Source: Clostridia bacterium
GTDB taxonomy: Bacteria > Bacillota > Dehalobacteriia > UBA7702
DNA: 54,963 bases
Direction: 5' to 3'
Assembly (NCBI GenBank): GCA_051866595.1
Contig: JBJDXI010000061.1
Coordinates: 1 to 54,963 of the forward strand
Shown: positions 10,741 through 24,070 of the stretch, piece by piece
Layout of the letters: every line of letters starts with the position of its first letter
Numbering within the stretch: position 1 is the stretch's first letter
The notes under the pieces: model-generated
The model's input: the letters and a program-made list of their open reading frames with translations, nothing else
Told to the model about the DNA's origin: nothing
Database searches by the model: none
Translations under genes and position numbers: made by a program

Positions 10741-12165
10741 TTAAAAGCGGAAATCCCGCTTGCCGTTTTCAATTTCTTTCAGGTTCCGGGCGGCGATTTC
10801 CCGCGTCTTTTCTCTGGGAATCCGCTGCAATTCCTTTTCAATCAGGGCTTCACCGATTTTCCGTGTTTCCGGAGAGGCGTAGTCCACCAGATATTCTTTC
10901 AACGTCATCAACGCGTTGGGATGACAGCAGTTCAGAATTTTGCCGCTCTTACAGAGGCTCATAAAGCGATCTCCGGTGCGGCCCTCCCGATAACAGGCGG
11001 TGCAGAAGGAAGGAACGTAGTCGAAATCCATCAGCCAGCGGATGACTTCATCCAAGGTACGCTGGTCGGAAACGTCAAATTGTTCCGTTTCGTGGGGACG
11101 TTCTTCCTCACTGTATCCCCCCACCGAGGTGCGGCTGGCGCCGCTGATCTGGGAAACGCCGAGACGAATCACTTTTTCCCGCACCGCCTGGCTTTCCCGG
11201 GTGGAAATAATCATGCCGGTATAGGGCACGGAAATGCGAATCAGCGCGCAGATTTTAGCGAAAATATCATCGCTGATACCGTTATCAAAATCATCGGGAT
11301 TGATGTCGTCGGCCCGTTTCAGACGGGGCACACTGATGGTATGGGGCCCCACGCCGTGGGCGGCTTCCAGATGTTCGGCGTGCATCAGCAGGCCGGCAAA
11401 CTCATACTTATATTTATCCAGACCGAAAAGAACGCCGAGACCTACATCGTCGATGCCGCCTTCCATGGCCCGGTCCATGGCTTCGGTATGATAATTATAA
11501 TCATGCTTGGGGCCGGAGGGATGGAGCTCCGCGTAGCTTTCCTTATGGTAGGTTTCCTGAAACAGAATATAGGTGCCGATACCGGCGTCGTGAAGCTTCT
11601 TGTAATTTTCCACGGTGGTAGCGGCAATATTCACATTGACCCGGCGGATGGCGCCGTTTTTATGCTGAATTCCGTAAATGGTCTCAATGCTTTCCAGAAT
11701 GTATTCAATGGGGTTATTTTTGGGGTCTTCCCCGGCTTCAATGGCCAAGCGCTTGTGTCCCATATCCTGCAAAGCGATAACTTCCCGCCGGATTTCCTCC
11801 TGGGTCAGCTTTTTGCGGGGAATATTCTTGTTCTGGCGGTGATACGGGCAGTACACACAGCCGTTGATGCAGTAATTGGAAAGATACAGCGGCGCGAAAA
11901 TAACGATACGATTGCCGTAATAGGCCATTTTGATCTCTTCGGCCAGATCGTACATCTGCTGTATTTTCGTTTCATCGTCGCAGGCCAGCAAAACCGAGGC
12001 TTCTCTGTGGCTCAACCCTTTATGAAGCCGGGCCTTTTCCAGAATACTGTCGATCAGCGCTATGTTGTCTTTGTTCTTTTCCGCGTAATCCAACGTGTCC
12101 AGAATTTCCTCATGATTGATAAATTCATCGGCACACAAAGATTTGGGGTCATACTTGATACTCAT
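10741..12165 (-). CDS. hydG: [FeFe]-hydrogenase maturase HydG (radical SAM tyrosine lyase)
   Basis: Radical SAM motif CINGCVYC. The extra C-terminal Cys cluster (CTACYREGRTGDRFMSLCKSGKILNCC) distinguishes HydG from ThiH. The gene sits 13 nt upstream of hydF. Confidence 0.9.
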   Translation of the reverse strand: MSIKYDPKSLCADEFINHEEILDTLDYAEKNKDNIALIDSILEKARLHKGLSHREASVLLACDDETKIQQMYDLAEEIKMAYYGNRIVIFAPLYLSNYCINGCVYCPYHRQNKNIPRKKLTQEEIRREVIALQDMGHKRLAIEAGEDPKNNPIEYILESIETIYGIQHKNGAIRRVNVNIAATTVENYKKLHDAGIGTYILFQETYHKESYAELHPSGPKHDYNYHTEAMDRAMEGGIDDVGLGVLFGLDKYKYEFAGLLMHAEHLEAAHGVGPHTISVPRLKRADDINPDDFDNGISDDIFAKICALIRISVPYTGMIISTRESQAVREKVIRLGVSQISGASRTSVGGYSEEERPHETEQFDVSDQRTLDEVIRWLMDFDYVPSFCTACYREGRTGDRFMSLCKSGKILNCCHPNALMTLKEYLVDYASPETRKIGEALIEKELQRIPREKTREIAARNLKEIENGKRDFRF

Positions 12166-12278
12166 AAATACTCTCCTTCCTTCCGGGTCAAAAGATTTCC
12201 CCGTCAGTTCCTTATTTCACGGCCGCCGGTTTTTCGGTACAGCCGATTTTTCCGTTATTCCTTGGTTTCAAAAGGGTC

Positions 12279-12524
12279 TCAGACATGGGAGTAAATCGTC
12301 TTTGCCGTCACCCCCGGCAGGCGGCCGATCTTTCCCGAAAGAGCGTTGATCACATCATTGGGAGCGTCCACGGCGACACTGATAATGCAAACTCCCTTTT
12401 CTTTATAGGGAACGCCCATGCGGCTGATGATATACGCGCTGTAATCATGGAGCACTTCATTGAGTTTCTCCCAGCAATCCGTCTGCTCCACAATCACACC
12501 AATCAAAGCGACTCTTGTTTCCAT
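12279..12524 (-). CDS. TM1266-family putative iron-only hydrogenase system regulator (small ACT/NikR-C-like protein)
   Basis: The 81 aa product starts at METRVALIGVIVEQ, behind a GGAGG RBS. The track ORF runs up to 12677 but would cross a terminator-like hairpin. Its position directly upstream of hydG is typical of this family. Confidence 0.7.
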   Translation of the reverse strand: METRVALIGVIVEQTDCWEKLNEVLHDYSAYIISRMGVPYKEKGVCIISVAVDAPNDVINALSGKIGRLPGVTAKTIYSHV

Positions 12525-12536
12525 CGTCTGCCTCCG

Positions 12537-12561
12537 TAAAAAAAATACGCCGTTCCGGCGC
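12537..12561 (-). terminator. Leader terminator / attenuator hairpin immediately upstream of the hyd operon RBS
   Basis: Read on the minus strand: GCGCCG gaa CGGCGU followed by a U-rich tract (A UUUUUUUU), then ACGGAGG (RBS) and the ATG at 12524. Confidence 0.45.
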
Positions 12562-12690
12562 AGTAAAACAAGGACAATCCCGGTGCGGAAACCTCCGTCA
12601 GAACCCGAAAAATTCTCCTTATACCGTGGTTTTGCGCCTTTCATCTCAATACACCATTTCAATGTCAGAAACCACACTGAATTTGTTTAT

Positions 12691-14129: not shown

Positions 14130-15125
14130 ATGACGACAGATCCCCCAAAAAAACTGAGTATTCTCTATATATTGGAAATTTTAAAACGGGAAACAAACGA
14201 GGATCATCCCCTGACCCATCAGGAAATTCTTCAGATCTTAAAAAGGGATTATCACATGGAGCTGGAGCGAAAAAGCGTCTCCCGCAACATTCAGGACCTC
14301 ATCGACGCCGGTTACGACATTGTTACCGAAAACGGCTGTTATCTGGCCTCCCGTGATTTTGAATACAGCGAGTTGCGACTGCTCATCGACAGCGTATTGT
14401 TTTCCAAAAACATTCCACGAAAGCAATGCAAAACACTGGTCAACAAGGTGGCTGCGCTGACCGACCGCCATTTCAACGCTCACGTCCGCCACATCACCAC
14501 CATGCCCACGGCGGATACCAACAACCGCCAGATTTTTTATACCATCGAAGTGCTGGACGAGGCCATTTCTCAGGAAAAGAAAGTTTCCTTCTGGTACAAC
14601 GAGTACCATACCGATAAAAAGCTGCACCATAAAAGAGAAAACCGCTATGTTGTAAGCCCCTACCAGATCGCCGCCACCAACGGGCGCTACTATCTGATCT
14701 GCTGTACCGAGGGACACGATAATGTCGCCCATTACCGCATCGATCATATCGACGGCATTGAACTCCTCGAGGAACCGGCCAAAACGATGAAGGAAGTCAA
14801 AGGGCTGGAAAACGGACTGGATCTGCCGAAACATATGGCAGAACATATCTATATGTTCTCCGGCAAGAGCACCCGGGTGATTTTCCGGGCGAAGCTTTCC
14901 GCCGTGGATCAGATCATCGACTGGTTTGGCAGCGACGTCCTCTTTGAAAACGAAACCGAAAGCACGGTGGATGTTTCCGTCCGTGTCAATGAAAACGCCA
15001 TGTTCTGCTGGCTGCTTCAATACGGTATGAGCTGTGAGGTGCTCTACCCTCCGGCCCTCCGGGAAAGAGTCCGGAACGCCGTCAATGACATGGCGAAAAA
15101 ATACGCCGAAGATCCCACATCGTAA
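14130..15125 (+). CDS. WYL-domain transcriptional regulator (wHTH-WYL-WCX architecture)
   Basis: N-terminal winged HTH (LSILYILEILKRETNEDHPLTHQEILQIL...SRNIQDLIDAGYDI). Central WYL-type segment (VSFWYNEYHTDKKLHHKRENRYVVSPYQIAATNGRYYLICC). AGGAGG RBS. Confidence 0.85.
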   Translation: MTTDPPKKLSILYILEILKRETNEDHPLTHQEILQILKRDYHMELERKSVSRNIQDLIDAGYDIVTENGCYLASRDFEYSELRLLIDSVLFSKNIPRKQCKTLVNKVAALTDRHFNAHVRHITTMPTADTNNRQIFYTIEVLDEAISQEKKVSFWYNEYHTDKKLHHKRENRYVVSPYQIAATNGRYYLICCTEGHDNVAHYRIDHIDGIELLEEPAKTMKEVKGLENGLDLPKHMAEHIYMFSGKSTRVIFRAKLSAVDQIIDWFGSDVLFENETESTVDVSVRVNENAMFCWLLQYGMSCEVLYPPALRERVRNAVNDMAKKYAEDPTS

Positions 15126-15184: not shown

Positions 15185-15224
15185 AAACCCGGCAACACGC
15201 TGAACCGCGTCGTCTGCCGGGTTT
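15185..15224. terminator. Shared bidirectional terminator for the WYL gene (+) and the cupin gene (-)
   Basis: Stem AAACCCGGCA ... TGCCGGGTTT, with T-rich sequence after it on both strands. Confidence 0.6.
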
Positions 15225-15240: not shown

Positions 15241-15633
15241 TTAAAGAAGGGCGGGGAAGAATTTGGCAAAGACCATAATGCCTTCTTCGCCGGCGAGAAC
15301 CTGATGAGGTACTTTCGGCCGGAAGATGGTCACGTCGCCGGGAACAACGGCGTATTCTCCGTCACCGTTGATACAGGTACCGCCGCCGCAGATCACTTCA
15401 TGGGTTTCCGTCTGCACATCATGGGTATGTTCCCCGATTTTCTTTCCGGGAGCCACGCGGATCAGATGAAAGCTGAAAGCGCCGCCGCTGTCCGCCGAGG
15501 TCACGATATGTTTCAGTTCCACACCGTCAAAGGCCGCGTGAGCCGTCCAGGGAATATCGGCAAAGGCTTTTTCTCCTTCGGGCAATTTCAACGTTCCGTT
15601 TTCAAACAGATCATAAACTTTTTTTCCTTCCAT
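15241..15633 (-). CDS. Cupin-domain protein
   Basis: The 130 aa product has a cupin-like His/Glu pattern (GEHTHDVQTETHEVICG ... VPGDVTIFRPKVPHQV). GAGGAG RBS. Confidence 0.75.
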   Translation of the reverse strand: MEGKKVYDLFENGTLKLPEGEKAFADIPWTAHAAFDGVELKHIVTSADSGGAFSFHLIRVAPGKKIGEHTHDVQTETHEVICGGGTCINGDGEYAVVPGDVTIFRPKVPHQVLAGEEGIMVFAKFFPALL

Positions 15634-15712: not shown

Positions 15713-17188
15713 CTATGATAAATCCATGGCTTCCAAAGCGCGGTCAATCTCCCGGCGGCGGTCATGGAAAAGCAGTTCTTTATTGTGGGCGAAGTAACCC
15801 TCACAGCCGTAACGGCTGATAAAATCCACCGCGTCCCGGCTCACCGTCAGTTCCGTCACCAGCACCAGCATTTCTTTCCCCTCACCAAAAGCCTCCTCGG
15901 CAAAGGAAAAAACATGGTCGAAAGCTTCTTTTACCCAGCGTATTTCTCCGGCCAGATCGCCGAGATCCTGCTTCAGCGAAGCTTTAACGGCCGCCGGATC
16001 GCCGGTGTACTCCGCCTGTTTCCGGCGCAGAATACATACGGCCCGTTCCAAACCGCTACGTTCCTCTTCTTTCAATGAAGAGGATTTTTTCGCCGCGGCC
16101 AGCTTCCGTTCCATTTCATCGCATTGGGCAGTCAGGGTGGCGTTTCCGTCCTCCGCCGCGGCCGCCGCTTTCACGGCGCCGGCCACAAGGCGCAGAACCC
16201 GTTCTCTTTCGGTAACGACGGAAACTTCCCGCAGAAGAGATGAGAGAATCAGGCCGATCAAACTGATCCGCTCATCAAAGGAGGCGTTCTTCGCTCTCTC
16301 CGTCACCGAAGAATCGGAACTTCCCCTCAAAATCGCGTCGACCTGATAATCGCTGCGGTATTTACGGTAAAGCTCGTAATAAACATAAAAATCCTTGGCG
16401 ATGCGGCGGTTTCGAACATACTGGCCGATAAGCCCTTCCTCCACCTCAATGCCGCAGGCTTCATATTCTTTCATCATTTCCGACAGATCGTCCCAGCCCC
16501 GGGGCGTCACGAAAGACTTACCCTCCACCGTTGTTTCCACGGCGCAGAAATCCCCCCGTTTCACGGAAAGATAGGAAATCACCGCCGGATGCACATTCTG
16601 CTCATAAGCGTATTCTTTCCAGGCTTCAAAATCGGCCTCCACCTCCAGGACTTTCAGACGATCCAGCGTCGCAATATCAAACTCCCGGACGGAGCGGTTG
16701 TATTCCGGCGGATTCCCGGCGGTCACAATGATCCAGCCTTCGGGCAGAGCGTGAGAGCCGAAGGTCTTGAACTGCAAAAACTGGAGCATCGCCGGGGCCA
16801 GTGTTTCCGATACGCAGTTGACCTCATCGAGGAAGAGAATCCCCTCCCGGACGCCGGTGGTTTCCATCATCGCATATACCGAGGCGATGATCTCGCTCAT
16901 GGTATATTCCGAAACGGAAAATTCTTTTCCCCCGTAGTTTTTCTTTACGATATAAGGCAGACCCAGAGCGCTCTGGCGGGTGTGGTGAATCATCGAATAG
17001 GAAACGAGACCAATCCCCAGCTCTCCGGCAATCTGTTCCAAGACGGCGGTTTTGCCCACCCCCGGCGCGCCGAGGAGAAAAACCGGCCGTTGACGCCGGC
17101 GGGGAAAACAATAGGCCCCGTATTCATCTTTCTGCAAATACGCCCGGACGGCGTTTTTGATCTGCTCTTTTGCTTCACGAATATTCAT
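15713..17188 (-). CDS. MoxR-like AAA+ ATPase (AAA_5 type) with a roughly 200 aa helical C-terminal extension
   Basis: Walker A is GAPGVGKT and Walker B is ILFLDEVN. The start is the ATG at 17188 (MNIREAKEQ), behind an AAGGAG RBS and 13 nt after the upstream stop. The track's start at 17245 would overlap the preceding gene. Confidence 0.85.
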   Translation of the reverse strand: MNIREAKEQIKNAVRAYLQKDEYGAYCFPRRRQRPVFLLGAPGVGKTAVLEQIAGELGIGLVSYSMIHHTRQSALGLPYIVKKNYGGKEFSVSEYTMSEIIASVYAMMETTGVREGILFLDEVNCVSETLAPAMLQFLQFKTFGSHALPEGWIIVTAGNPPEYNRSVREFDIATLDRLKVLEVEADFEAWKEYAYEQNVHPAVISYLSVKRGDFCAVETTVEGKSFVTPRGWDDLSEMMKEYEACGIEVEEGLIGQYVRNRRIAKDFYVYYELYRKYRSDYQVDAILRGSSDSSVTERAKNASFDERISLIGLILSSLLREVSVVTERERVLRLVAGAVKAAAAAEDGNATLTAQCDEMERKLAAAKKSSSLKEEERSGLERAVCILRRKQAEYTGDPAAVKASLKQDLGDLAGEIRWVKEAFDHVFSFAEEAFGEGKEMLVLVTELTVSRDAVDFISRYGCEGYFAHNKELLFHDRRREIDRALEAMDLS

Positions 17189-17201
17189 TTTCACGGTCTC
17201 C

Positions 17202-18218
17202 TTAAAAATCATCCAAATCAAAAGCCGCGGCCAGCTGTTCCTCAATGGATCGCTGCTGTACCGTGCGGTGTTTGTATTCCATCAGCGAAACCACGGCTTC
17301 CCGGCAGCGCAGGCGATTCGCCAGCCCGATATAATCATCCACCTTCTCCGGTGAAGGCAGACCCATCCGGTAAAGCCCCTCCAGCGCCGGGATATTCACC
17401 GTTTCCACCGCCAGAGAAAGAACCGCGTCCTCATGCTTTTGTATATAAGCGTCGTACAGGGCCTGTTCTTCCTCGCTGTGGCGTTCTCTCGTTGTCAGAT
17501 AACAAAGCACCAGGATTTTCTGAGCTTCTTCCTCCCACAGCTCCGGCCGGGCATGAGGGATGTAGCCCCTTTCCAGCCGGGGCAAATGGCGGTGACCGAA
17601 AAGATTTTCGGAAATCCGCTCCATGCCATCGGGAAGATTCAGCTCTTTCAGCCCGCCACATTCCCGCAGGGCGTTGCTGCCGATTTTCGTCACGCTTTCG
17701 GGAATCGTCAGCGAACGCAGACCGCCGCAGCACTCAAAAGCGCCCCATTCAATGGTTTCCAATTTCGGAGGCATTTCAATATCCGTCAGATGGCGGCAGC
17801 CATAGAACATCCGGTTGGAGATCACGCGGATCTTCGGCGGCAGGACGATGCGCTTTAAGGCGATACAGCCCCAGAATGCCGCCTCCCCGATCCATTCCGT
17901 TTCATCGGGAAGTTCAAGGGTTTTCAGCGCCGTACAGCCGCTGAAGGCCCGGTAGCCGATTTTTTTCAGGCCGGAAGGAAGTTTCACCTCCGTCAAAGAG
18001 GTACATTCCCGCAAGGCCCACCAGCCCAGTTCCGTCACGGTTTCCGGGAAAGCAATCGATGTCAGCTTTTTCTGTCCCCGAAACAGCGCCTCTCCGATGG
18101 CCGTTACGGTTTTGCCCTTCCATTCCGAGGGCACCGATAAAGCGCCTTCAACCTCGCCGTAAAGATCCGTCAACGTAATACCGGTCTCATTTTTTTCATA
18201 GCCGTAAGACAGGCTCAT
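17202..18218 (-). CDS. Cytoplasmic leucine-rich repeat protein (BspA/LRR_5-type repeats) with a helical C-terminal domain
   Basis: About seven 23-residue repeats of the form xIGxxAFxxCxxLxxIxLPxxL. No signal peptide. The ATG at 18218 overlaps the upstream stop (ATGA), with GAGG 10 nt upstream. An in-frame ATG at 18227 is the alternative start. Confidence 0.8.
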   Translation of the reverse strand: MSLSYGYEKNETGITLTDLYGEVEGALSVPSEWKGKTVTAIGEALFRGQKKLTSIAFPETVTELGWWALRECTSLTEVKLPSGLKKIGYRAFSGCTALKTLELPDETEWIGEAAFWGCIALKRIVLPPKIRVISNRMFYGCRHLTDIEMPPKLETIEWGAFECCGGLRSLTIPESVTKIGSNALRECGGLKELNLPDGMERISENLFGHRHLPRLERGYIPHARPELWEEEAQKILVLCYLTTRERHSEEEQALYDAYIQKHEDAVLSLAVETVNIPALEGLYRMGLPSPEKVDDYIGLANRLRCREAVVSLMEYKHRTVQQRSIEEQLAAAFDLDDF

Positions 18219-19585
18219 AACATCCATACCTCATCACCGTCGAGGACCGCTTTCATGGCCCAGGGCGGAACATTTTTCTGCGCCGGCGTGTCCTCCAAAA
18301 AGATAAACGCCGTTTCGTAGGGAGGTTTCTTCAACGGATACTCACCGTAACCGTCGGTAAAGTAGAGCAGGCCCTTCAAGGACTCAAAATGATGTTTTTC
18401 CACCAGTCCGTTGACGTAGGCAAACACCGGACGAAAATCGGTACCGCCGAAGCCCTTCAGCTCCATTCCCTCCAGATACCCTTCAAAATCCTCCCGGGAG
18501 GTGATCACGGCATCCTCTTGAATTTCCGTATCGCATTGAAGAATATGAACCCGCACCTTCTCAAAAAAGCTCGTTTTCTCCAGAAGAATCTGACAGGTCT
18601 GTTCCAGAAAACGCCGGACCAGCTTCCCCGAAACCGAAGCCGACGTATCTATGGCAATCACAAAATCACGGATTTTCTTTTCCTCCCTGTACTCCAGGGG
18701 TTCAATCAGCGGCATATTCCCATATAATTGCAGACCGTAGGTATAAAAGCAATAATCAAACTCATCCTCGTTGACTTTCAGTGACTCCCCGGAAATGGCG
18801 AAACGTTTCAGAAAAGAACGGTAATCGACTTTTTCTTTCAGTACCAGATCAAGGCATTGCATAAGGGTTCCGGCCTTTTCGCCCCATTCCCGGGAAAAGG
18901 TCTCCATGTCCATCCGCACGGTATGACCGGCCTCCCGCCAATAAACCGCGGCTTTTTCATCGCCCCGCAATGCCCTGCGGCCGCCGCCTTTGCCCGGAAG
19001 TTCCGTTCCGGAAAAATCAACGGTCTCACCGGACAACGGAAAATACCAGGAAGAGTGATCGTCGGCGCGGAAATCCTCGGCCATGGAACAAAGCTCTTCC
19101 TCACTCAGGTCACTTTCCGTCAGATAACGGTAGATCTTCTCCGCCGACAGGAAGCGCACCTTCTTTCGCAGCGTCTCGATGACCGAATCCTGACGGTACT
19201 GCCGTTTGCAGATGAGACCCGTCAGTTCCAGCTCATTGATGACATTTTCCGCGGCGATGTCACAGGCCAGGTCATAGCAAAGTTGATTCACCTCGCCGCC
19301 GCGGAAGGGATGAGCAAAGAGACAGTGCGTCAGCATATGCAGAAGATCCCGGGGAACCCTCTCTTTTTCTTCCCGACTGGAGATTAGAACATGACGTACG
19401 TTGTAGCGGAGGTGTTCACCGTCCACTGCGTAGCTTTCAGGATGACCCTCCACATCCTTCAGACGAAAGAGTGCCGTATCAAGAAAGCGCAGGGGCACCA
19501 GTAATTCACTGCGGGCCAACTTCAGTATTTCCGCCGCCAGAGACGATCCGCTGTTCCGTTGTTCTTTGAGCATTTCACGATCCAT
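18215..19585 (-). CDS. DUF2201-like protein: N-terminal metallopeptidase-like domain (degenerate HExxH) plus C-terminal vWA-like domain
   Basis: The sequence LLHMLTHCLFAHP sits where the family carries HExxH, so the Glu is replaced by Met. The vWA MIDAS motif is DxSxS (VIAIDTSASVSG). AAGGAG RBS. No signal peptide. Confidence 0.8.
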   Translation of the reverse strand: MDREMLKEQRNSGSSLAAEILKLARSELLVPLRFLDTALFRLKDVEGHPESYAVDGEHLRYNVRHVLISSREEKERVPRDLLHMLTHCLFAHPFRGGEVNQLCYDLACDIAAENVINELELTGLICKRQYRQDSVIETLRKKVRFLSAEKIYRYLTESDLSEEELCSMAEDFRADDHSSWYFPLSGETVDFSGTELPGKGGGRRALRGDEKAAVYWREAGHTVRMDMETFSREWGEKAGTLMQCLDLVLKEKVDYRSFLKRFAISGESLKVNEDEFDYCFYTYGLQLYGNMPLIEPLEYREEKKIRDFVIAIDTSASVSGKLVRRFLEQTCQILLEKTSFFEKVRVHILQCDTEIQEDAVITSREDFEGYLEGMELKGFGGTDFRPVFAYVNGLVEKHHFESLKGLLYFTDGYGEYPLKKPPYETAFIFLEDTPAQKNVPPWAMKAVLDGDEVWML

Positions 19586-19605
19586 ACCAATTCTCCTTTG
19601 ATTTC

Positions 19606-19614
19606 ATTATATCA
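19606..19614 (-). promoter_or_regulatory. Extended -10 promoter of the vWA-LRR-AAA operon
   Basis: Read on the minus strand: TGATATAAT, about 20 nt upstream of the RBS. The -35 element is weak. Confidence 0.5.
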
Positions 19615-19764
19615 CAGTTTCGGAAAAAAGACAGAAACGGCGCGAATCAAAAAAGCAAAGGCGAAAAATATTGCCGGTTCTCCCCGAAAAGAAAACCATC
19701 GGAGGTGAACTCAGAAATAAAGAAATAATTTTTATGATAGCAGGCATTTTTCGGCAAAATACAC

Positions 19765-19859: not shown

Positions 19860-20936
19860 ATGAACAACTATCCTCATCGAAAGAAAAACAATTCCAATCG
19901 CAGAAGATCCGTCGGTACCAACCGGAGAGATTCGGAAAGAACTTCTCAAAGAAAAAGGACATCAGCGGAAAAACGACACAATACAGAAGCCTCTCTCTAC
20001 GGCGCGGGAAAAAGAACACGGCAAACCAAACAAGAGCCGCCGCGTTCCCGGTCACGGAAACGCCGGCCTTCCCTTATCCCGCCGGTAACAGGAAAGAGTC
20101 CCCGGAAGAATCCCCAATCCCCGCAGAAAAGAAGCAACCGGCGGCAAAAACGATCCTCCGATCAACCAAAGCTTTTAAGAGGATTGCTTGCCGTCGTATT
20201 TCTCCTCATCATCGCCACCCTCTTTTATCTGGGGATCAGCACCGTCAAAGAACAGAAAACCCTTTCGGATAATATCGCAATTCTCGAGGAAATGGAGAAA
20301 AAAGATCCCGCGGAACTGCTGGCCGCCGAAGTCAAGGGCGGAATTCATGTCACGGATTTTCAGGCCGAACAAAGCAAAATCGTAAACCTGGATCCGACAG
20401 CAGTGGACAAGACCTCTTTGCTGAGGCAATTTAAAAACAAAGTCATCCTCGGTGACTCGTTAGCCAAAGCCTGCACCGGCTACGGTTATCTCAACGATTA
20501 CATCGTTTTCGCGGAGATCGGCGTTTCCCTTACGAATTCCGATGAACTTTTTGAAGCCGCCGAAAGCGCCGCGCCTTCGATGATTTTTCTTTGCTTCGGT
20601 ATCAACGATATTAAATCCTGCGGAGAACGTAGCGATATTTTCATCAAAAATTATACCAAGCGCATTACAGAACTTCAGAAAAGTCTTCCCCACACCGTCA
20701 TCTATGTTCAGGGAATCCTGCCTCCGGCCTCTGTCAAGGCGAACTCTCCTTATCAATACCGTGAAAAATACAATCAGGAACTGGAAAAGATGTGCGATGA
20801 TCTGGGCGTTTACTACTTTAATGCCGACTTTATTTTAGAACAGCTGCCCTCTCTCTATGATGTGGACGGACTTCATCCCAAAGGTGATTTCTATCCCTTA
20901 TGGCTGACGTATCTGGCAGATATTGCGGGGTTATAA
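19860..20936 (+). CDS. Membrane-anchored SGNH/GDSL hydrolase-type esterase or acyltransferase with a long basic N-terminal tail
   Basis: GDS block (VILGDSLAK) and C-terminal DGLHP block. One TM helix (LLAVVFLLIIATLFYLGI) follows about 110 residues rich in Arg, Lys, Ser and Gln. Confidence 0.75.
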   Translation: MNNYPHRKKNNSNRRRSVGTNRRDSERTSQRKRTSAEKRHNTEASLYGAGKRTRQTKQEPPRSRSRKRRPSLIPPVTGKSPRKNPQSPQKRSNRRQKRSSDQPKLLRGLLAVVFLLIIATLFYLGISTVKEQKTLSDNIAILEEMEKKDPAELLAAEVKGGIHVTDFQAEQSKIVNLDPTAVDKTSLLRQFKNKVILGDSLAKACTGYGYLNDYIVFAEIGVSLTNSDELFEAAESAAPSMIFLCFGINDIKSCGERSDIFIKNYTKRITELQKSLPHTVIYVQGILPPASVKANSPYQYREKYNQELEKMCDDLGVYYFNADFILEQLPSLYDVDGLHPKGDFYPLWLTYLADIAGL

Positions 20937-20937
20937 C

Positions 20938-21495
20938 ATGAAAACGGAAACTGATTTTTCGGCACAGCCCGCCGCGGAGCAAAGGCCCGCCCTTTCCCGT
21001 CACGCGGGGCTGTCCAAAACCGATTTTTTCTTTGGAATTATCAAACTGCTTCTACTGGCTTTCCTCATTTTTTATATCGGGATGCTCTTTTCGTCAAATA
21101 CCACAAAAGACGTAAGCATCCATACCATCGAAAAAGTAATGGCACCTTTCGCGGAAGAAGCGGAATTAACACCCGGTGACGCCAACACGATGAAAAGAGA
21201 GTTCTCTCTTGATGCCGGCGCTTACCCCAATGCCATCATTTATTCTTCGGACTCATTGATGGATGTTTCCGAATTTTTCATTGTTAAAGTGGAAGATACA
21301 GAAGAATTTTCCGCACTGGAAACGGCCGTTGGCCTTTATCTGGAGGAACAAATGAAAAAATTCGACGGATACGGAACAAATCAGTACGATCTTTTAAAAC
21401 ACGCCGTCATCACGGAAAAAGGTCCTTACTTTTTCTTCGGCGTTTCCGAACAGGTCGAAAAATGGGAGGAGGCGTTCCTTTCCTGTATTAAATAG
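20938..21495 (+). CDS. Membrane-anchored protein, DUF4358-like
   Basis: The ATG lies 1 nt after the upstream stop. There is one N-terminal TM helix (FFFGIIKLLLLAFLIFYIGMLF). The family assignment comes from my memory of typical MBOAT/DHHW neighbourhoods and has not been verified. Confidence 0.5.
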   Translation: MKTETDFSAQPAAEQRPALSRHAGLSKTDFFFGIIKLLLLAFLIFYIGMLFSSNTTKDVSIHTIEKVMAPFAEEAELTPGDANTMKREFSLDAGAYPNAIIYSSDSLMDVSEFFIVKVEDTEEFSALETAVGLYLEEQMKKFDGYGTNQYDLLKHAVITEKGPYFFFGVSEQVEKWEEAFLSCIK

Positions 21496-21512
21496 AAGGG
21501 AACAATATTACA

Positions 21513-22898
21513 GTGGTTTTCAGCAGTGTTTATTTTTTATTTATATTTCTCCCGGTTGTTCTGCTCCTCTACTTCGCCGCGTCCCCGAAAATGAAAAATC
21601 TGGTGCTTCTGACTGCCAGTATCTTTTTCTACGCCTGGGGAGAACCGGTTTATGTGGTGCTGATGCTGTTCAGCACCGTATTCAACTATGTGATGGGCCG
21701 GGATATTGCCAGGGAAAAACCGGCCGCCGCGAAAAAACGAAGCCTGATATTTGCCGTCATCATCAACCTTCTGATTCTCGGGTTTTTCAAATATTACGGT
21801 TTTTTAGTGGATACGCTCAATGGGATTCTTCCCTTTGATCTGCCTTACCGCGAGCTGCCGCTGCCCATCGGTATTTCTTTCTATACGTTTCAGGCTCTTT
21901 CCTATATCATTGATATTTACCGCGGAAAGATCGAGGTACAGAAAAATATTATCCTTTTCGCCGTCTATATCACCATGTTTCCGCAGCTTGTCGCCGGTCC
22001 CATTGTCAAATATTCGGATATTGGCACGGAGCTGAAAGAAAGAAAAATCACCGCCGACGACATCGGCGAAGGCATTGTCCGCCTCATCATCGGCCTCGGG
22101 AAAAAAGTTCTCCTCGCCAACAATCTGGGGCTTCTCTACACCACCGTCCAGGCCATGCCGGAACGGTCGGTTCTCCTTGCCTGGATCGGAATTATCGCTT
22201 ACACGCTGCAAATCTATTTTGATTTCAGCGGTTATTCGGATATGGCCATCGGCATCGGACGGATGCTGGGTTTCCGTTTCCCGGAAAACTTCCGTTATCC
22301 GTATCTTTCCACGTCAATTTCGGATTTCTGGCGCCGTTGGCATATGACCCTTTCTTACTGGTTCAGAGATTACGTCTATATTCCCCTCGGCGGCAGCCGG
22401 GCCGGAACAGCCCGTCAGATTCGGAACATTCTTATCGTCTGGATGCTGACCGGCCTCTGGCACGGTGCCAGCTGGAATTTTGTTCTTTGGGGGCTGTATT
22501 ACGGTCTCCTTCTGATGCTGGAAAAATTCGTCCTTCGCTCGGTCCTTCCCCATATTCCGGGATTCATCCGGCATATTTACACAATGTTTTTCGTCATCAT
22601 CGGCTGGGTTCTTTTCAGCAACACCGATCTTACCGCCGCTCTGCAATATTTAGGCAGTATGTTCGGCATTGGGGCGGCAGGCTTCGCCGGAGGAGAAACC
22701 TTCTACTACCTGTTGACCCATTTGATTCTCCTCATCGTTTCCATTCTGTGCTGCGCGCCCGCTTTGGGTGAATGGTTTTTCGATCAGGCGGAATACCGGC
22801 CTAAATTTTCCGCCGCCGTACTTATTATGATCTTTGTATTATCCACAGCCTTTTTGGTTTACAGCTCCTATAATCCTTTCCTGTATTTCCGTTTCTAG
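21513..22898 (+). CDS. MBOAT-family membrane-bound O-acyltransferase (AlgI/DltB-like)
   Basis: Polytopic membrane protein. It carries the conserved MBOAT His region (FWRRWHMTLSYWFRDYVYIPLGG ... GLWHGASW). GTG start. Confidence 0.9.
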   Translation: MVFSSVYFLFIFLPVVLLLYFAASPKMKNLVLLTASIFFYAWGEPVYVVLMLFSTVFNYVMGRDIAREKPAAAKKRSLIFAVIINLLILGFFKYYGFLVDTLNGILPFDLPYRELPLPIGISFYTFQALSYIIDIYRGKIEVQKNIILFAVYITMFPQLVAGPIVKYSDIGTELKERKITADDIGEGIVRLIIGLGKKVLLANNLGLLYTTVQAMPERSVLLAWIGIIAYTLQIYFDFSGYSDMAIGIGRMLGFRFPENFRYPYLSTSISDFWRRWHMTLSYWFRDYVYIPLGGSRAGTARQIRNILIVWMLTGLWHGASWNFVLWGLYYGLLLMLEKFVLRSVLPHIPGFIRHIYTMFFVIIGWVLFSNTDLTAALQYLGSMFGIGAAGFAGGETFYYLLTHLILLIVSILCCAPALGEWFFDQAEYRPKFSAAVLIMIFVLSTAFLVYSSYNPFLYFRF

Positions 22899-22912
22899 GA
22901 GGTGAATGTCTT

Positions 22913-24070
22913 TTGAGAATAAAATTCGATTCTTATTCGCAGATCGTTTCCGTTCTGTTGATCGCCATAGTTTTGATTCTTGATCTCATCGGCATTTTTT
23001 CTCCGGACAGGAGTTACTCCTCCTCAGAAAACCGGAATCTGGAATTAAGACCAACCATGACATGGGAAACCATACTTTCCGGACGTTACCAGGAGCGTTA
23101 CGAAGCTTTCACGGAGGATCAGTTTCCCTTCCGCGACGGCTGGATCCAGCTGAAAACCACCACGGACCGACTGACAGGCAAGAAAGAATTCAACGGAATC
23201 TATCTTGGGAAAAACGGCTATCTGATTCAAAATTTCACAGAGCCGAAAAAAGAAGCCGAAGATCAGATGTTCGACGCCGTAAAGGAATTTTCAGAGAATC
23301 ATTCAAAGCTTCGGCAATACGCTTTGATCGCGCCAACGGCAGTTTCGGTTCTCTCGGATAAACTGCCGAAACACGCTCCCGTCGGCGACCAAAACGCCTA
23401 TCTGGATCAGACCGCGAAAAATTTCAGCGAAGCGGGAATCACCGTTATCGATATACGCGAGAATATGAAAGCCGCGGCGAAGGAAAAACAACTTTATTAT
23501 AAAACGGATCATCATTGGACCACAGACGGCGCGTACATCGCTTACCGCGCCTTTGCCAACGCCGCGGATTTAGATGGCAAAAACACGAAATACCGCAGAT
23601 TACAGGTATCGGATTCCTTCTGCGGTATGCTCGCCGCCTCCGGTGGTTTTTCCGAATCAAAAACCGATGATATTTACGTATACCTGCCGAAAGGCAAAGA
23701 AATCAATTACGTCGTCTCCTATGAAGAAGAGCAGGAGAAATCCGCCTCTTTCTACCGCACGGAAAATCTGAATGTCCGGGATCAATACACTCTTTTTCTC
23801 AACGGCAATCACGCGTTGGTCCGGATTACAACAAACGCGGAATCAAAGGATACCCTACTGATCCTGAAAGATTCTTACGCGAACTGCTTCGTTCCCTTTT
23901 TAACCGGAGATTACGCCGAAATCATCTTAGTGGATCCCCGCTACTACGCCGACGATCTGGAAACACTGATCAAAAGCGAACAAGTCACCGATTTGCTGTA
24001 CCTCTACAACGCGAACACATTATCCCAGGACAGCAATTTGGAAACTGTTCTCGGTACAGAAAACGAATAA
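22913..24070 (+). CDS. DHHW-family protein (AlgJ/AlgX-like partner of MBOAT)
   Basis: Signature KTDHHWTTDGAY. N-terminal membrane anchor. The TTG start lies 8 nt after AGGAGGTG. Confidence 0.85.
   Translation: MRIKFDSYSQIVSVLLIAIVLILDLIGIFSPDRSYSSSENRNLELRPTMTWETILSGRYQERYEAFTEDQFPFRDGWIQLKTTTDRLTGKKEFNGIYLGKNGYLIQNFTEPKKEAEDQMFDAVKEFSENHSKLRQYALIAPTAVSVLSDKLPKHAPVGDQNAYLDQTAKNFSEAGITVIDIRENMKAAAKEKQLYYKTDHHWTTDGAYIAYRAFANAADLDGKNTKYRRLQVSDSFCGMLAASGGFSESKTDDIYVYLPKGKEINYVVSYEEEQEKSASFYRTENLNVRDQYTLFLNGNHALVRITTNAESKDTLLILKDSYANCFVPFLTGDYAEIILVDPRYYADDLETLIKSEQVTDLLYLYNANTLSQDSNLETVLGTENE

Follow-up and report, generated by a model that had tools for sequence, protein, structure and literature searches.

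On the minus strand of a 54,963-nucleotide stretch of DNA from a Clostridia bacterium (GenBank assembly GCA_051866595.1, contig JBJDXI010000061.1; the whole stretch is called the window here), three adjoining genes encode a DUF2201-type vWA protein of 456 amino acids (gene 1, 18215-19585), a predicted cytoplasmic leucine-rich repeat (LRR) protein of 338 amino acids and the BspA-type LRR_5 class (gene 2, 17202-18218), and an AAA_5/MoxR-like ATPase of 491 amino acids (gene 3, 15713-17188). An earlier note on this DNA had read the three open reading frames (ORFs) as an operon for a candidate uncharacterised sensor system. We find all three ORFs at the positions it gave, and Pfam returns the families it had predicted, namely DUF2201_N, DUF2201, LRR_5 and AAA_5. 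Here we describe these genes, their relatives across Clostridia and what the arrangement may mean.

The operon and its three proteins

The genes are tightly coupled. The end of gene 1 and the start of gene 2 overlap in an ATGA stop/start sequence at 18215-18218 (minus strand), and genes 2 and 3 are separated by a 13-nt gap (17189-17201, minus strand) that contains the GGAGA ribosome-binding site of gene 3. The same 4-nt overlaps join the corresponding genes in relatives, for example at loci L003, L004 and L043. Upstream of gene 1, 20 nt before its ATG, lies an extended -10 element, TGATATAAT (19606-19614, minus strand), with no recognisable -35 box. Five orthologous loci (the window, L092, L003, L004 and L007) keep TGnTATAAT ahead of the vWA gene although their flanking sequence has diverged, and this conservation supports the promoter that had been proposed from the window alone. 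For want of a -35 box, a generic promoter scan makes no call at the site. The divergent intergenic region also holds, some 60 nt further upstream than the -10 box, an inverted repeat with a 10-bp stem (19675-19698, minus strand), which could serve as an operator, for instance for a WYL or MerR regulator.

The earlier note had counted three genes in the operon. The coupling of the three stands, but their number probably does not: a lineage-specific Cupin_2 gene of 130 amino acids follows the ATPase gene (15241-15633, minus strand), and RNA folding finds no terminator-like hairpin between the two. In contrast, a hairpin with a U-rich tract lies after the cupin gene, between it and a convergent WYL gene (15187-15222, minus strand). 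It folds at -30.9 kcal/mol (z = -3.9), and 0 of 200 shuffled sequences fold as well. The hairpin is likely to be a bidirectional terminator marking the 3' end of the operon; with a terminator after the cupin gene and none before it, the vWA, LRR, AAA and cupin genes probably form one four-gene transcription unit.

Both domains of gene 1 score above the Pfam gathering thresholds (DUF2201_N, 38.8 bits with a cut-off of 23.2; DUF2201, 51.2 bits with a cut-off of 26.4) in the order N-terminal domain, then vWA, which places the protein among the DUF2201-type vWA proteins (PF13203 plus PF09967). The zincin-like DUF2201_N domain, delimited by Pfam and alignment, covers residues 24-262 (18800-19516, minus strand). 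Where a putative metallopeptidase would have the HExxH zincin motif, gene 1 has HMLTH (residues 83-87; 19325-19339, minus strand), with Met at the position of the catalytic Glu. The missing Glu had been pointed out before as a trait of this gene alone; it is in fact a trait of the whole subfamily. In alignments of 24 and 70 homologues, position 84 is always hydrophobic, and H83, H87, D109 and E113 are invariant. In contrast, HExxH is retained in 22 of 26 distant viral homologues. By its sequence, the N-terminal domain resembles a zincin fold in which the metal ligands remain but the general base is gone.

The vWA domain (Pfam DUF2201, residues 309-448; 18242-18661, minus strand) has a complete metal-ion-dependent adhesion site (MIDAS), made up of the core DTSAS (18635-18649, minus strand) together with T382 and D411. 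All five residues, D313, S315, S317, T382 and D411, are invariant among 70 homologues; by motif and fold match the MIDAS is intact, in agreement with the earlier reading. The AlphaFold2 (AF2) model of the protein has a predicted local distance difference test score (pLDDT) of 79. In Foldseek searches, the vWA part of the model matches integrin-I/vWA structures in the PDB, where the matches are generic vWA/I-domain ones and say nothing on the fold of the N-terminal domain; both domains match phage proteins described as 'metallopeptidase + VWA-like'. A sequence search of the PDB finds no solved relative of the vWA protein, which matches PHROG phrog_1314 at 7e-37 and, with clustering at 90%, has over 7900 relatives in the database. 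Alignment reveals a near-invariant motif in the linker that joins its two domains, NMPLIEPLEY (residues 290-299; 18689-18718, minus strand). Its columns P292-Y299 are invariant or at least 90% conserved, and its pLDDT in the model is low. The motif could be a docking peptide or an internal ligand of the MIDAS.

Gene 3 matches Pfam AAA_5 with 30.9 bits (cut-off 22) and PHROG phrog_1297 at 1.5e-39. Its Walker A (17048-17071, minus strand) and Walker B (16823-16840, minus strand) motifs are intact, as had been reported: GAPGxGKT, ILFLDE, the sensor-1 residue N159, R168 and R177 are invariant across 25 AAA homologues, and the mean column identity is 67% for these 25 loci from different families. 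A conserved insert, SYSMxHHTRQSALGLP, falls at what would be the position of the helix-2 (H2) insert. The C-terminal extension of about 200 residues that the earlier note had described (residues 290-491; 15716-16321, minus strand) consists of a variable Ala/Glu-rich helical stretch and then a conserved end of about 70 residues; it aligns in nearly all full-length relatives and is a hallmark of the subfamily. At E ≤ 1e-30 the ATPase has relatives in 559 clusters (50% identity), and among the 150 clusters listed most are about 490-515 residues long and match over nearly their full length. Precomputed Pfam annotations of the relatives' AAA proteins include weak bpMoxR matches. Sequence matches in the PDB are limited to the P-loop region, the best being Midasin.

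Gene 2 matches Pfam LRR_5 at E = 3.8e-45 and has full-length orthologues in 16 clusters (46-93% identity). The N-termini of the orthologues read MS/TLSYGYEKN, which fixes the start of the LRR protein at 18218. Its AF2 model (pLDDT 90.5) is an N-capped LRR solenoid followed by a helical C-terminal domain, and Foldseek matches it to 4fs7, 4gt6 and 6mlx (TpLRR) with E values of 1e-11 to 1e-9. The closest structural matches include the LRR_5 crystal structures 4gt6, 4h09 and 4oju, from Faecalibacterium, Eubacterium ventriosum and Pseudoflavonifractor capillosus; 4gt6 is titled as a cell-surface protein. NCBIfam gives the LRR protein weak matches to adhesins, and neither NCBIfam nor PADLOC holds anything informative for the trio. 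We considered the acidic tail of the LRR protein, FDLDDF, as a general MIDAS ligand and rejected it; partners outside the window's clade have no such tail.

The protein has the sequence and fold of the BspA-type LRR_5 class, but not the surface or secreted location that goes with it. It shows no signal-peptide-like or transmembrane segment by a crude hydrophobicity measure, and its LRR N-cap starts no more than about five residues from the start codon. The same criterion, which does not reach non-classical export, was applied to the LRR ORFs of the loci described below and to a set of generic LRR_5 proteins: signal-peptide-like N-termini occur in 4 of 137 locus ORFs (all of them peripheral), compared to 54 of 102 generic proteins (53%). 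By these sequence measures nearly all LRR proteins of the loci appear to be cytoplasmic, as the earlier note had proposed for the one in the window.

Repeat-protein partners of the vWA/AAA pair

Relatives of the locus were gathered in a wider census of 80 species-representative loci, whose vWA proteins are 41-50% identical to that of the window. The census was hit-based, with the ORFs of the loci searched with the window's proteins. Both the vWA and the AAA gene are present in 66 of the 80 loci, the AAA gene downstream of the vWA gene and on the same strand. The remainder are mostly truncated contigs; of the 14 truncated loci, nine show the vWA gene immediately followed by an LRR gene. Contiguous LRR_5 genes on the same strand, one to six in number, accompany the pair in 50 of the 66 loci (76%). 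They lie between the pair in 28 loci (20 with a single gene, the rest with 2-6), directly after the ATPase gene in 14 and directly before the vWA gene in 14. Arrays of 2-6 LRR genes are found in about 8-9 loci, and the window has one gene. Once partners with ankyrin repeats or DUF6273 that carry the ankyrin-like module described below are counted, 53 of the 66 loci have a contiguous partner. Across the loci, about 90 LRR genes lie within the vWA/AAA modules, as we call the pair with its repeat proteins, versus 15 in the 398 kb of their distal flanks. No other gene family occurs in more than 14 of 86 loci, the largest one outside the module being an ABC ATPase. The module occurs across the main gut-clostridial families, namely the Oscillospiraceae, Lachnospiraceae, Acutalibacteraceae, Anaerovoracaceae, Erysipelotrichaceae and Peptococcaceae; the strain that carries locus L014 has a name, Pseudoflavonifractor capillosus An827.

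The earlier note had cast the LRR protein as an obligatory third partner inserted between the other two, and had offered to abandon the idea if the LRR gene proved unlinked in most genomes with the pair. The linkage is there, and none of the refuting conditions named in that note came true among those open to analysis here. The words 'obligatory' and 'between' do not survive: the partners number from 0 to 6, stand before, between or after the pair, can be replaced by ankyrin or DUF6273 proteins, and are not adjacent at all in a minority of loci. Among close relatives, including L092, which we took for the genome context of the window's module, the order vWA-LRR-AAA is kept in at least three flanking contexts (with the WYL gene convergent and the cupin gene present or absent).

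In some loci the partner is near the pair without being contiguous. L013 has it in convergent and L075 in divergent orientation, and in L036, L078 and L087 a corrinoid methyltransferase cluster precedes it, 5 kb downstream. In this last arrangement (L036 13058-18654, also L078 and L087), two URO-D/MtaA-like genes and the genes for a B12-binding protein and RACo lie between the ATPase gene and a 258-aa LRR gene, which carries the ankyrin-like module. Elsewhere a gene of another kind separates the pair. At L009/L010 (7001-13224) this is a Pfam-less 203-aa gene, and a 611-aa LRR gene lies 0.8 kb downstream of the AAA gene; the surrounding SSB, Prim-Pol, RNase H and SymE genes give a mobile-element-like context. 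In L044 and L065, Pfam-less genes of 314-324 aa lie between the vWA and AAA genes.

What the partners have in common is found in their helical part. The earlier note had seen a helical C-terminal domain in the LRR protein, which is correct but incomplete: the common feature is an ankyrin-like two-repeat module. A profile seeded from the helical domain of the window's LRR protein and iterated within the loci converges on a module of about 68 residues with the consensus ...LAIDNDDLEALQLLAEEGLITAKDIDEYIEYASENGNTECTAFLLEYKN. In the window's protein it covers residues ~250-319 and ends ...SLMEYKHR (17262-17471, minus strand). The consensus matches Pfam Ank_2 at E = 4e-4 and also consensus-ankyrin structures. 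The ankyrin-like module is present in 117 of the 137 LRR ORFs and in 16 non-LRR ORFs of the loci, several of which adjoin the vWA/AAA pair; these non-LRR partners have DUF6273 in L021 and L048 and bona fide ankyrin repeats in L052 and L077. At L021 (13037-14749) and L048 (11318-12823), DUF6273 replaces LRR_5, the ankyrin-like module is kept, and L021 adds zinc ribbons. DUF6273 may be a further recognition domain of the same system. We consider it very probable that the vWA/AAA pair and its repeat proteins work as a functional unit.

Closely related loci show how differently the enzymes and their partners evolve. Between L018 and L025, the vWA proteins are 93% and the ATPases 96% identical, and there is one LRR gene versus six, with a best match of 38%. 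In L063 and L068 the enzymes are 93% and 100% identical, and LRR proteins are either 67-71% identical or have no orthologue. The values are 90% (vWA) and 97% (AAA) for L028 and L038, with LRR proteins at 54-55%, and 87% and 91% for L035 and L075, which have no LRR gene and three LRR genes. The window's clade behaves differently: between L004 and L007, identities are 62% for the vWA protein, 65% for the ATPase and 68% for the LRR protein.

Genes around the module

The flanks of the loci hold heterogeneous housekeeping genes, including those for ABC ATPases, MatE, xanthine-dehydrogenase-type proteins, FtsH, UvrC and PNP. The absence of an obvious client metalloenzyme, remarked on earlier for the window, extends to the relatives, with no metalloenzyme consistently adjacent among the loci. 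In the window, the convergent gene downstream of the operon encodes a WYL/WCX regulator (14130-15125, plus strand; Pfam WYL and WCX, PADLOC WYL models), and a MerR-family gene lies beyond it. WYL genes stand beside the LRR gene throughout the window's clade (L003, L004-6 and L092, plus L001/L002); outside this clade they occur near the module only in L018, L025, L058 and L074, and the LRR-WYL adjacency is seen again in L025, L058 and L074. The cupin gene has the same position in L007/L008 and L092; it is not found in L003, in L004 or in the 80 wider loci.

Further along the minus strand, at 10741-12677, the window carries a HydG-like radical-SAM/BATS gene and a gene for a TM1266-like Fe-only-hydrogenase regulator. 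HydE/F/G were considered as a client of the module and rejected: their synteny with the module is confined to the window's clade (L001, L003, L092), and L004/L007 and the 80 loci lack them. We likewise rejected a CoxDE-like client among the xanthine-dehydrogenase-type neighbours, which only 4-5 loci have. Divergent from the operon, at 19860-24070 (plus strand), are genes for a GDSL lipase, DUF4358, MBOAT and a DHHW/AlgX-like protein, a four-gene cluster that looks like a cell-envelope O-acetylation set. We also rejected a link between MBOAT or O-acetylation and the module, as MBOAT is found only in the window and after the ATPase gene in L054, probably by coincidence.

Among the 2.9 million viral contigs of IMG/VR, there is one close relative of the clostridial subfamily; more distant homologues of the vWA/AAA pair occur in large phages. 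A prophage or mobile-element origin of the module, considered in view of the context of L009/L010, was rejected given this single close relative and the mostly housekeeping flanks.

Possible function and relation to known systems

We give about an even chance to the following explanation: the locus encodes a self-contained, ATP-driven protein-remodelling module, widespread in Clostridia, in which the repeat proteins are exchangeable adaptors. Its components would be the strongly conserved MoxR-like AAA+ ATPase with its family-specific C-terminal extension; the DUF2201-type co-factor with its complete MIDAS, whose Glu-less zincin-like N-terminal domain may be a pseudo-peptidase or a peptide clamp; and at least one cytoplasmic repeat protein, most often of the LRR_5 class and in some loci with ankyrin repeats or DUF6273. 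By analogy with the characterised MoxR-vWA pairs summarised by Kaur and colleagues (2020, PMC7159879), the ankyrin-like module would dock each repeat protein onto the vWA/AAA machine, and its variable LRR (or ankyrin/DUF6273) surface would bind a target, in a complex that the MIDAS and the pseudo-peptidase domain of the vWA protein would hold together. The AAA+ ring would use ATP hydrolysis to remodel, release or disassemble this complex. In favour of this explanation are the conserved linkage, the translational coupling in the window and in relatives, the apparently cytoplasmic partners with their common module, the turnover of these partners beside enzymes that change little, the intact MIDAS and ATPase motifs, and the logic of a vWA-MoxR core plus third component already set out in the same paper.

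Given that the adaptors vary between close relatives and the enzymes barely change, the targets are most likely variable and probably foreign proteins, for example phage proteins or toxins. The module would then join the vWA-MoxR ternary systems as an additional type, one built on LRRs. That the module acts in conflict with foreign proteins is, in our view, possible but doubtful. We are similarly tentative about a further step, in which it would be a split, NLR-type system of gut Clostridia resembling innate immunity, with receptor, ATPase and adaptor on separate genes. Recognition of phage or toxin proteins would fall to arrays of cytoplasmic LRR/ankyrin receptors that evolve fast, and the ankyrin-like handle would pass these targets to the vWA/pseudo-peptidase and the MoxR-like AAA+ motor for ATP-driven remodelling, so that they are neutralised without a suicidal effector.

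Several observations weigh against the adaptor explanation or its extension to conflict. The lone LRR gene of the window's clade changes no more quickly than the enzymes, unlike in an arms race; the window locus therefore carries a stable partner, and its version of the machine would have one LRR adaptor, translationally coupled between both enzymes. About 20% of the loci have no adjacent partner. At L001 (8001-10023; GCA_002482535.1) and L002, an LRR orthologue with 52% identity lies beside a WYL gene with no adjacent vWA/AAA genes. The earlier note had suggested looking for defence islands around the genes, and here the outcome is negative: the flanks across the loci are unrelated housekeeping genes, and 115 flanking proteins show no defence-gene enrichment and no defence island. 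In PADLOC-DB v2, neither the vWA nor the LRR protein matches any model and the AAA protein gives no more than weak IetA matches (E ≥ 1.6e-4), and the module contains no effector domain (nuclease, TIR, active protease or pore). Finally, the clostridial subfamily is nearly absent from viral contigs and the vWA/AAA pair has distant phage-borne homologues, so any conflict might run in either direction. The trio may fairly be called uncharacterised, as it was in the earlier note; the label 'sensor system' goes further than these data.

The repeat proteins could instead be clients. The vWA/AAA pair would then be a dedicated chaperone that folds, assembles or recycles the solenoids, for example into a larger cytoplasmic structure, and the biological function would reside in the repeat proteins themselves. 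Characterised MoxR-vWA pairs do act on specific clients (Kaur, Burroughs, Iyer & Aravind 2020, PMC7159879). The tight operon coupling fits a client, as does an ankyrin-like module common to the partners, which a chaperone might recognise as a handle, and the LRR protein of the window's clade is conserved like a housekeeping client. However, one conserved pair would have to serve 0-6 very different partners, with some loci having none, and the orthologue at L001/L002 exists without an adjoining pair. Client and adaptor are not separable from sequence alone. We think it unlikely that the repeat proteins are clients.

The arrays might also be neutralisers of competitors' toxins of the polyimmunity type (Imm-LRR/Imm-Ank), with the vWA/AAA pair stripping or recycling toxin-immunity complexes. 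LRR and ankyrin immunity proteins are known from heterogeneous polyimmunity loci, including those of Firmicutes and usually without toxin genes (Zhang et al. 2012, PMC3482391), and our tandem arrays of up to six cytoplasmic LRR/ankyrin proteins turn over rapidly. This explanation strikes us as improbable: no toxin cassettes, SUKH, SuFu or the like are among the conserved neighbours, the same paper reports no polyimmunity loci bracketed by vWA/AAA genes, and the window has a single conserved LRR gene.

An ordinary MoxR-vWA chaperone for cofactor insertion or maturation, with unrelated LRR genes next to it and a metalloenzyme client elsewhere in the genome or in the cupin, would account for a core pair in the AAA_5 and vWA families. 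It could also draw on the metal-binding cupin, which is probably co-transcribed in the window and present in L007 and L092, and on the xanthine-dehydrogenase-type genes flanking 4-5 loci. Yet no enzyme family is consistently adjacent (the largest neighbour family, the ABC ATPase, reaches 14 of 86 loci), neither L003 and L004 nor the 80 wider loci have the cupin gene, and same-strand contiguous LRR linkage is far above the flank background. We regard a chaperone of this kind as very unlikely.

The chances are slimmer still for non-classical export, in which the LRR proteins would be BspA-type adhesins, secreted or displayed on the surface, and the vWA/AAA pair would aid their export or anchoring. 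The classical location of LRR_5 proteins is the cell surface, the best-matching solved structures carry a cell-surface annotation, and the weak NCBIfam matches are to adhesins. The rarity of signal-peptide-like N-termini compared to generic LRR_5 proteins, the N-cap so close to the start, ankyrin-repeat partners typical of cytoplasmic proteins, and a module with no membrane, sortase, SLH or secretion component all argue against it. Chance adjacency in genomes where LRR_5 genes are merely abundant, as the 15 genes in the distal flanks and the varying partner position might suggest, is already largely refuted and hardly credible, since partners are many times denser within the module, the genes share a strand and often overlap by 4 nt, the partners have a specific module in common, and the trio is kept in different flanking contexts.

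The systems most like the adaptor explanation are the vWA-MoxR ternary conflict systems, whose third component, proposed to recognise invaders, is of the VMAP, iSTAND, FtsH or beta-propeller type; variable effector domains are fused C-terminally to the vWA protein, and the hosts emphasised are multicellular actinobacteria, cyanobacteria and similar bacteria (PMC7159879). Like these systems, our module has a MoxR and vWA core, a conserved partner family and variable associated components. Unlike them, its third component is a separate cytoplasmic LRR_5, ankyrin or DUF6273 protein, outside the four types; its vWA domain is C-terminal without a fused effector, the extra domain being the N-terminal Glu-less zincin-like fold; and its hosts are gut Clostridia. 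Our literature search, which was incomplete and leaves room for a prior description, found no paper describing the module, and nothing relevant on DUF2201 or COG3864. In Firmicutes, the vWA-MoxR core thus apparently comes with a new partner family based on LRR and ankyrin repeats, and the module as a whole is apparently undescribed.

If the repeat proteins are exchangeable recognition subunits of a machine driven by ATP, many 'BspA-like' LRR proteins that are annotated as surface proteins and yet appear to be intracellular would gain a function. The vWA-MoxR ternary concept would extend to Firmicutes with a new kind of third component, and bacteria would provide a case in which LRRs recognise targets inside the cell without being joined to a STAND NTPase. 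There would also be a way into the DUF2201/ATPase pairs of large phages, which are just as puzzling. These phage proteins (phrog_1314, with phrog_1297 as the ATPase) have the same two-domain architecture and the same partner ATPase family as the clostridial module, but they keep HExxH and are 22-32% identical, and the clostridial subfamily is essentially cellular.

The Imm-LRR/Imm-Ank polyimmunity loci (Zhang et al. 2012, PMC3482391) resemble the multi-LRR versions of the module, of which the window is not one, in their tandem cytoplasmic LRR/ankyrin arrays, the lack of toxin genes, rapid turnover and occurrence in Firmicutes. The module's arrays differ in being bracketed by and coupled to vWA/AAA genes, in carrying a specific ankyrin-like module, and in that no SUKH, SuFu or other immunity domain was seen with them.

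With the client-specific chaperones CbbQ/CbbO, NorQ/NorD, CoxD/CoxE and RavA/ViaA, the module has in common an AAA_5-type ATPase that forms a co-transcribed pair with a vWA protein bearing a MIDAS. The mechanism is likely to be common as well, with capture by the vWA protein followed by ATP-driven remodelling. In contrast to CoxDE, NorQD and CbbQO, the module has no conserved adjacent client enzyme, and unlike the client chaperones in general its vWA protein is of the DUF2201 type and its ATPase has the extension of about 200 residues. In Midasin/Rea1 and in Mg-chelatase (BchI/BchD/BchH), a motor of the AAA_5 type acts together with a MIDAS domain, which takes hold of a partner protein bearing a repeat or adaptor domain, and mechanical removal or remodelling comes next. 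These are eukaryotic ribosome-assembly or tetrapyrrole enzymes, homologous to the module only at the level of the AAA and vWA domains, and what they offer is an analogy for how a clostridial motor, MIDAS protein and repeat partner might act together.

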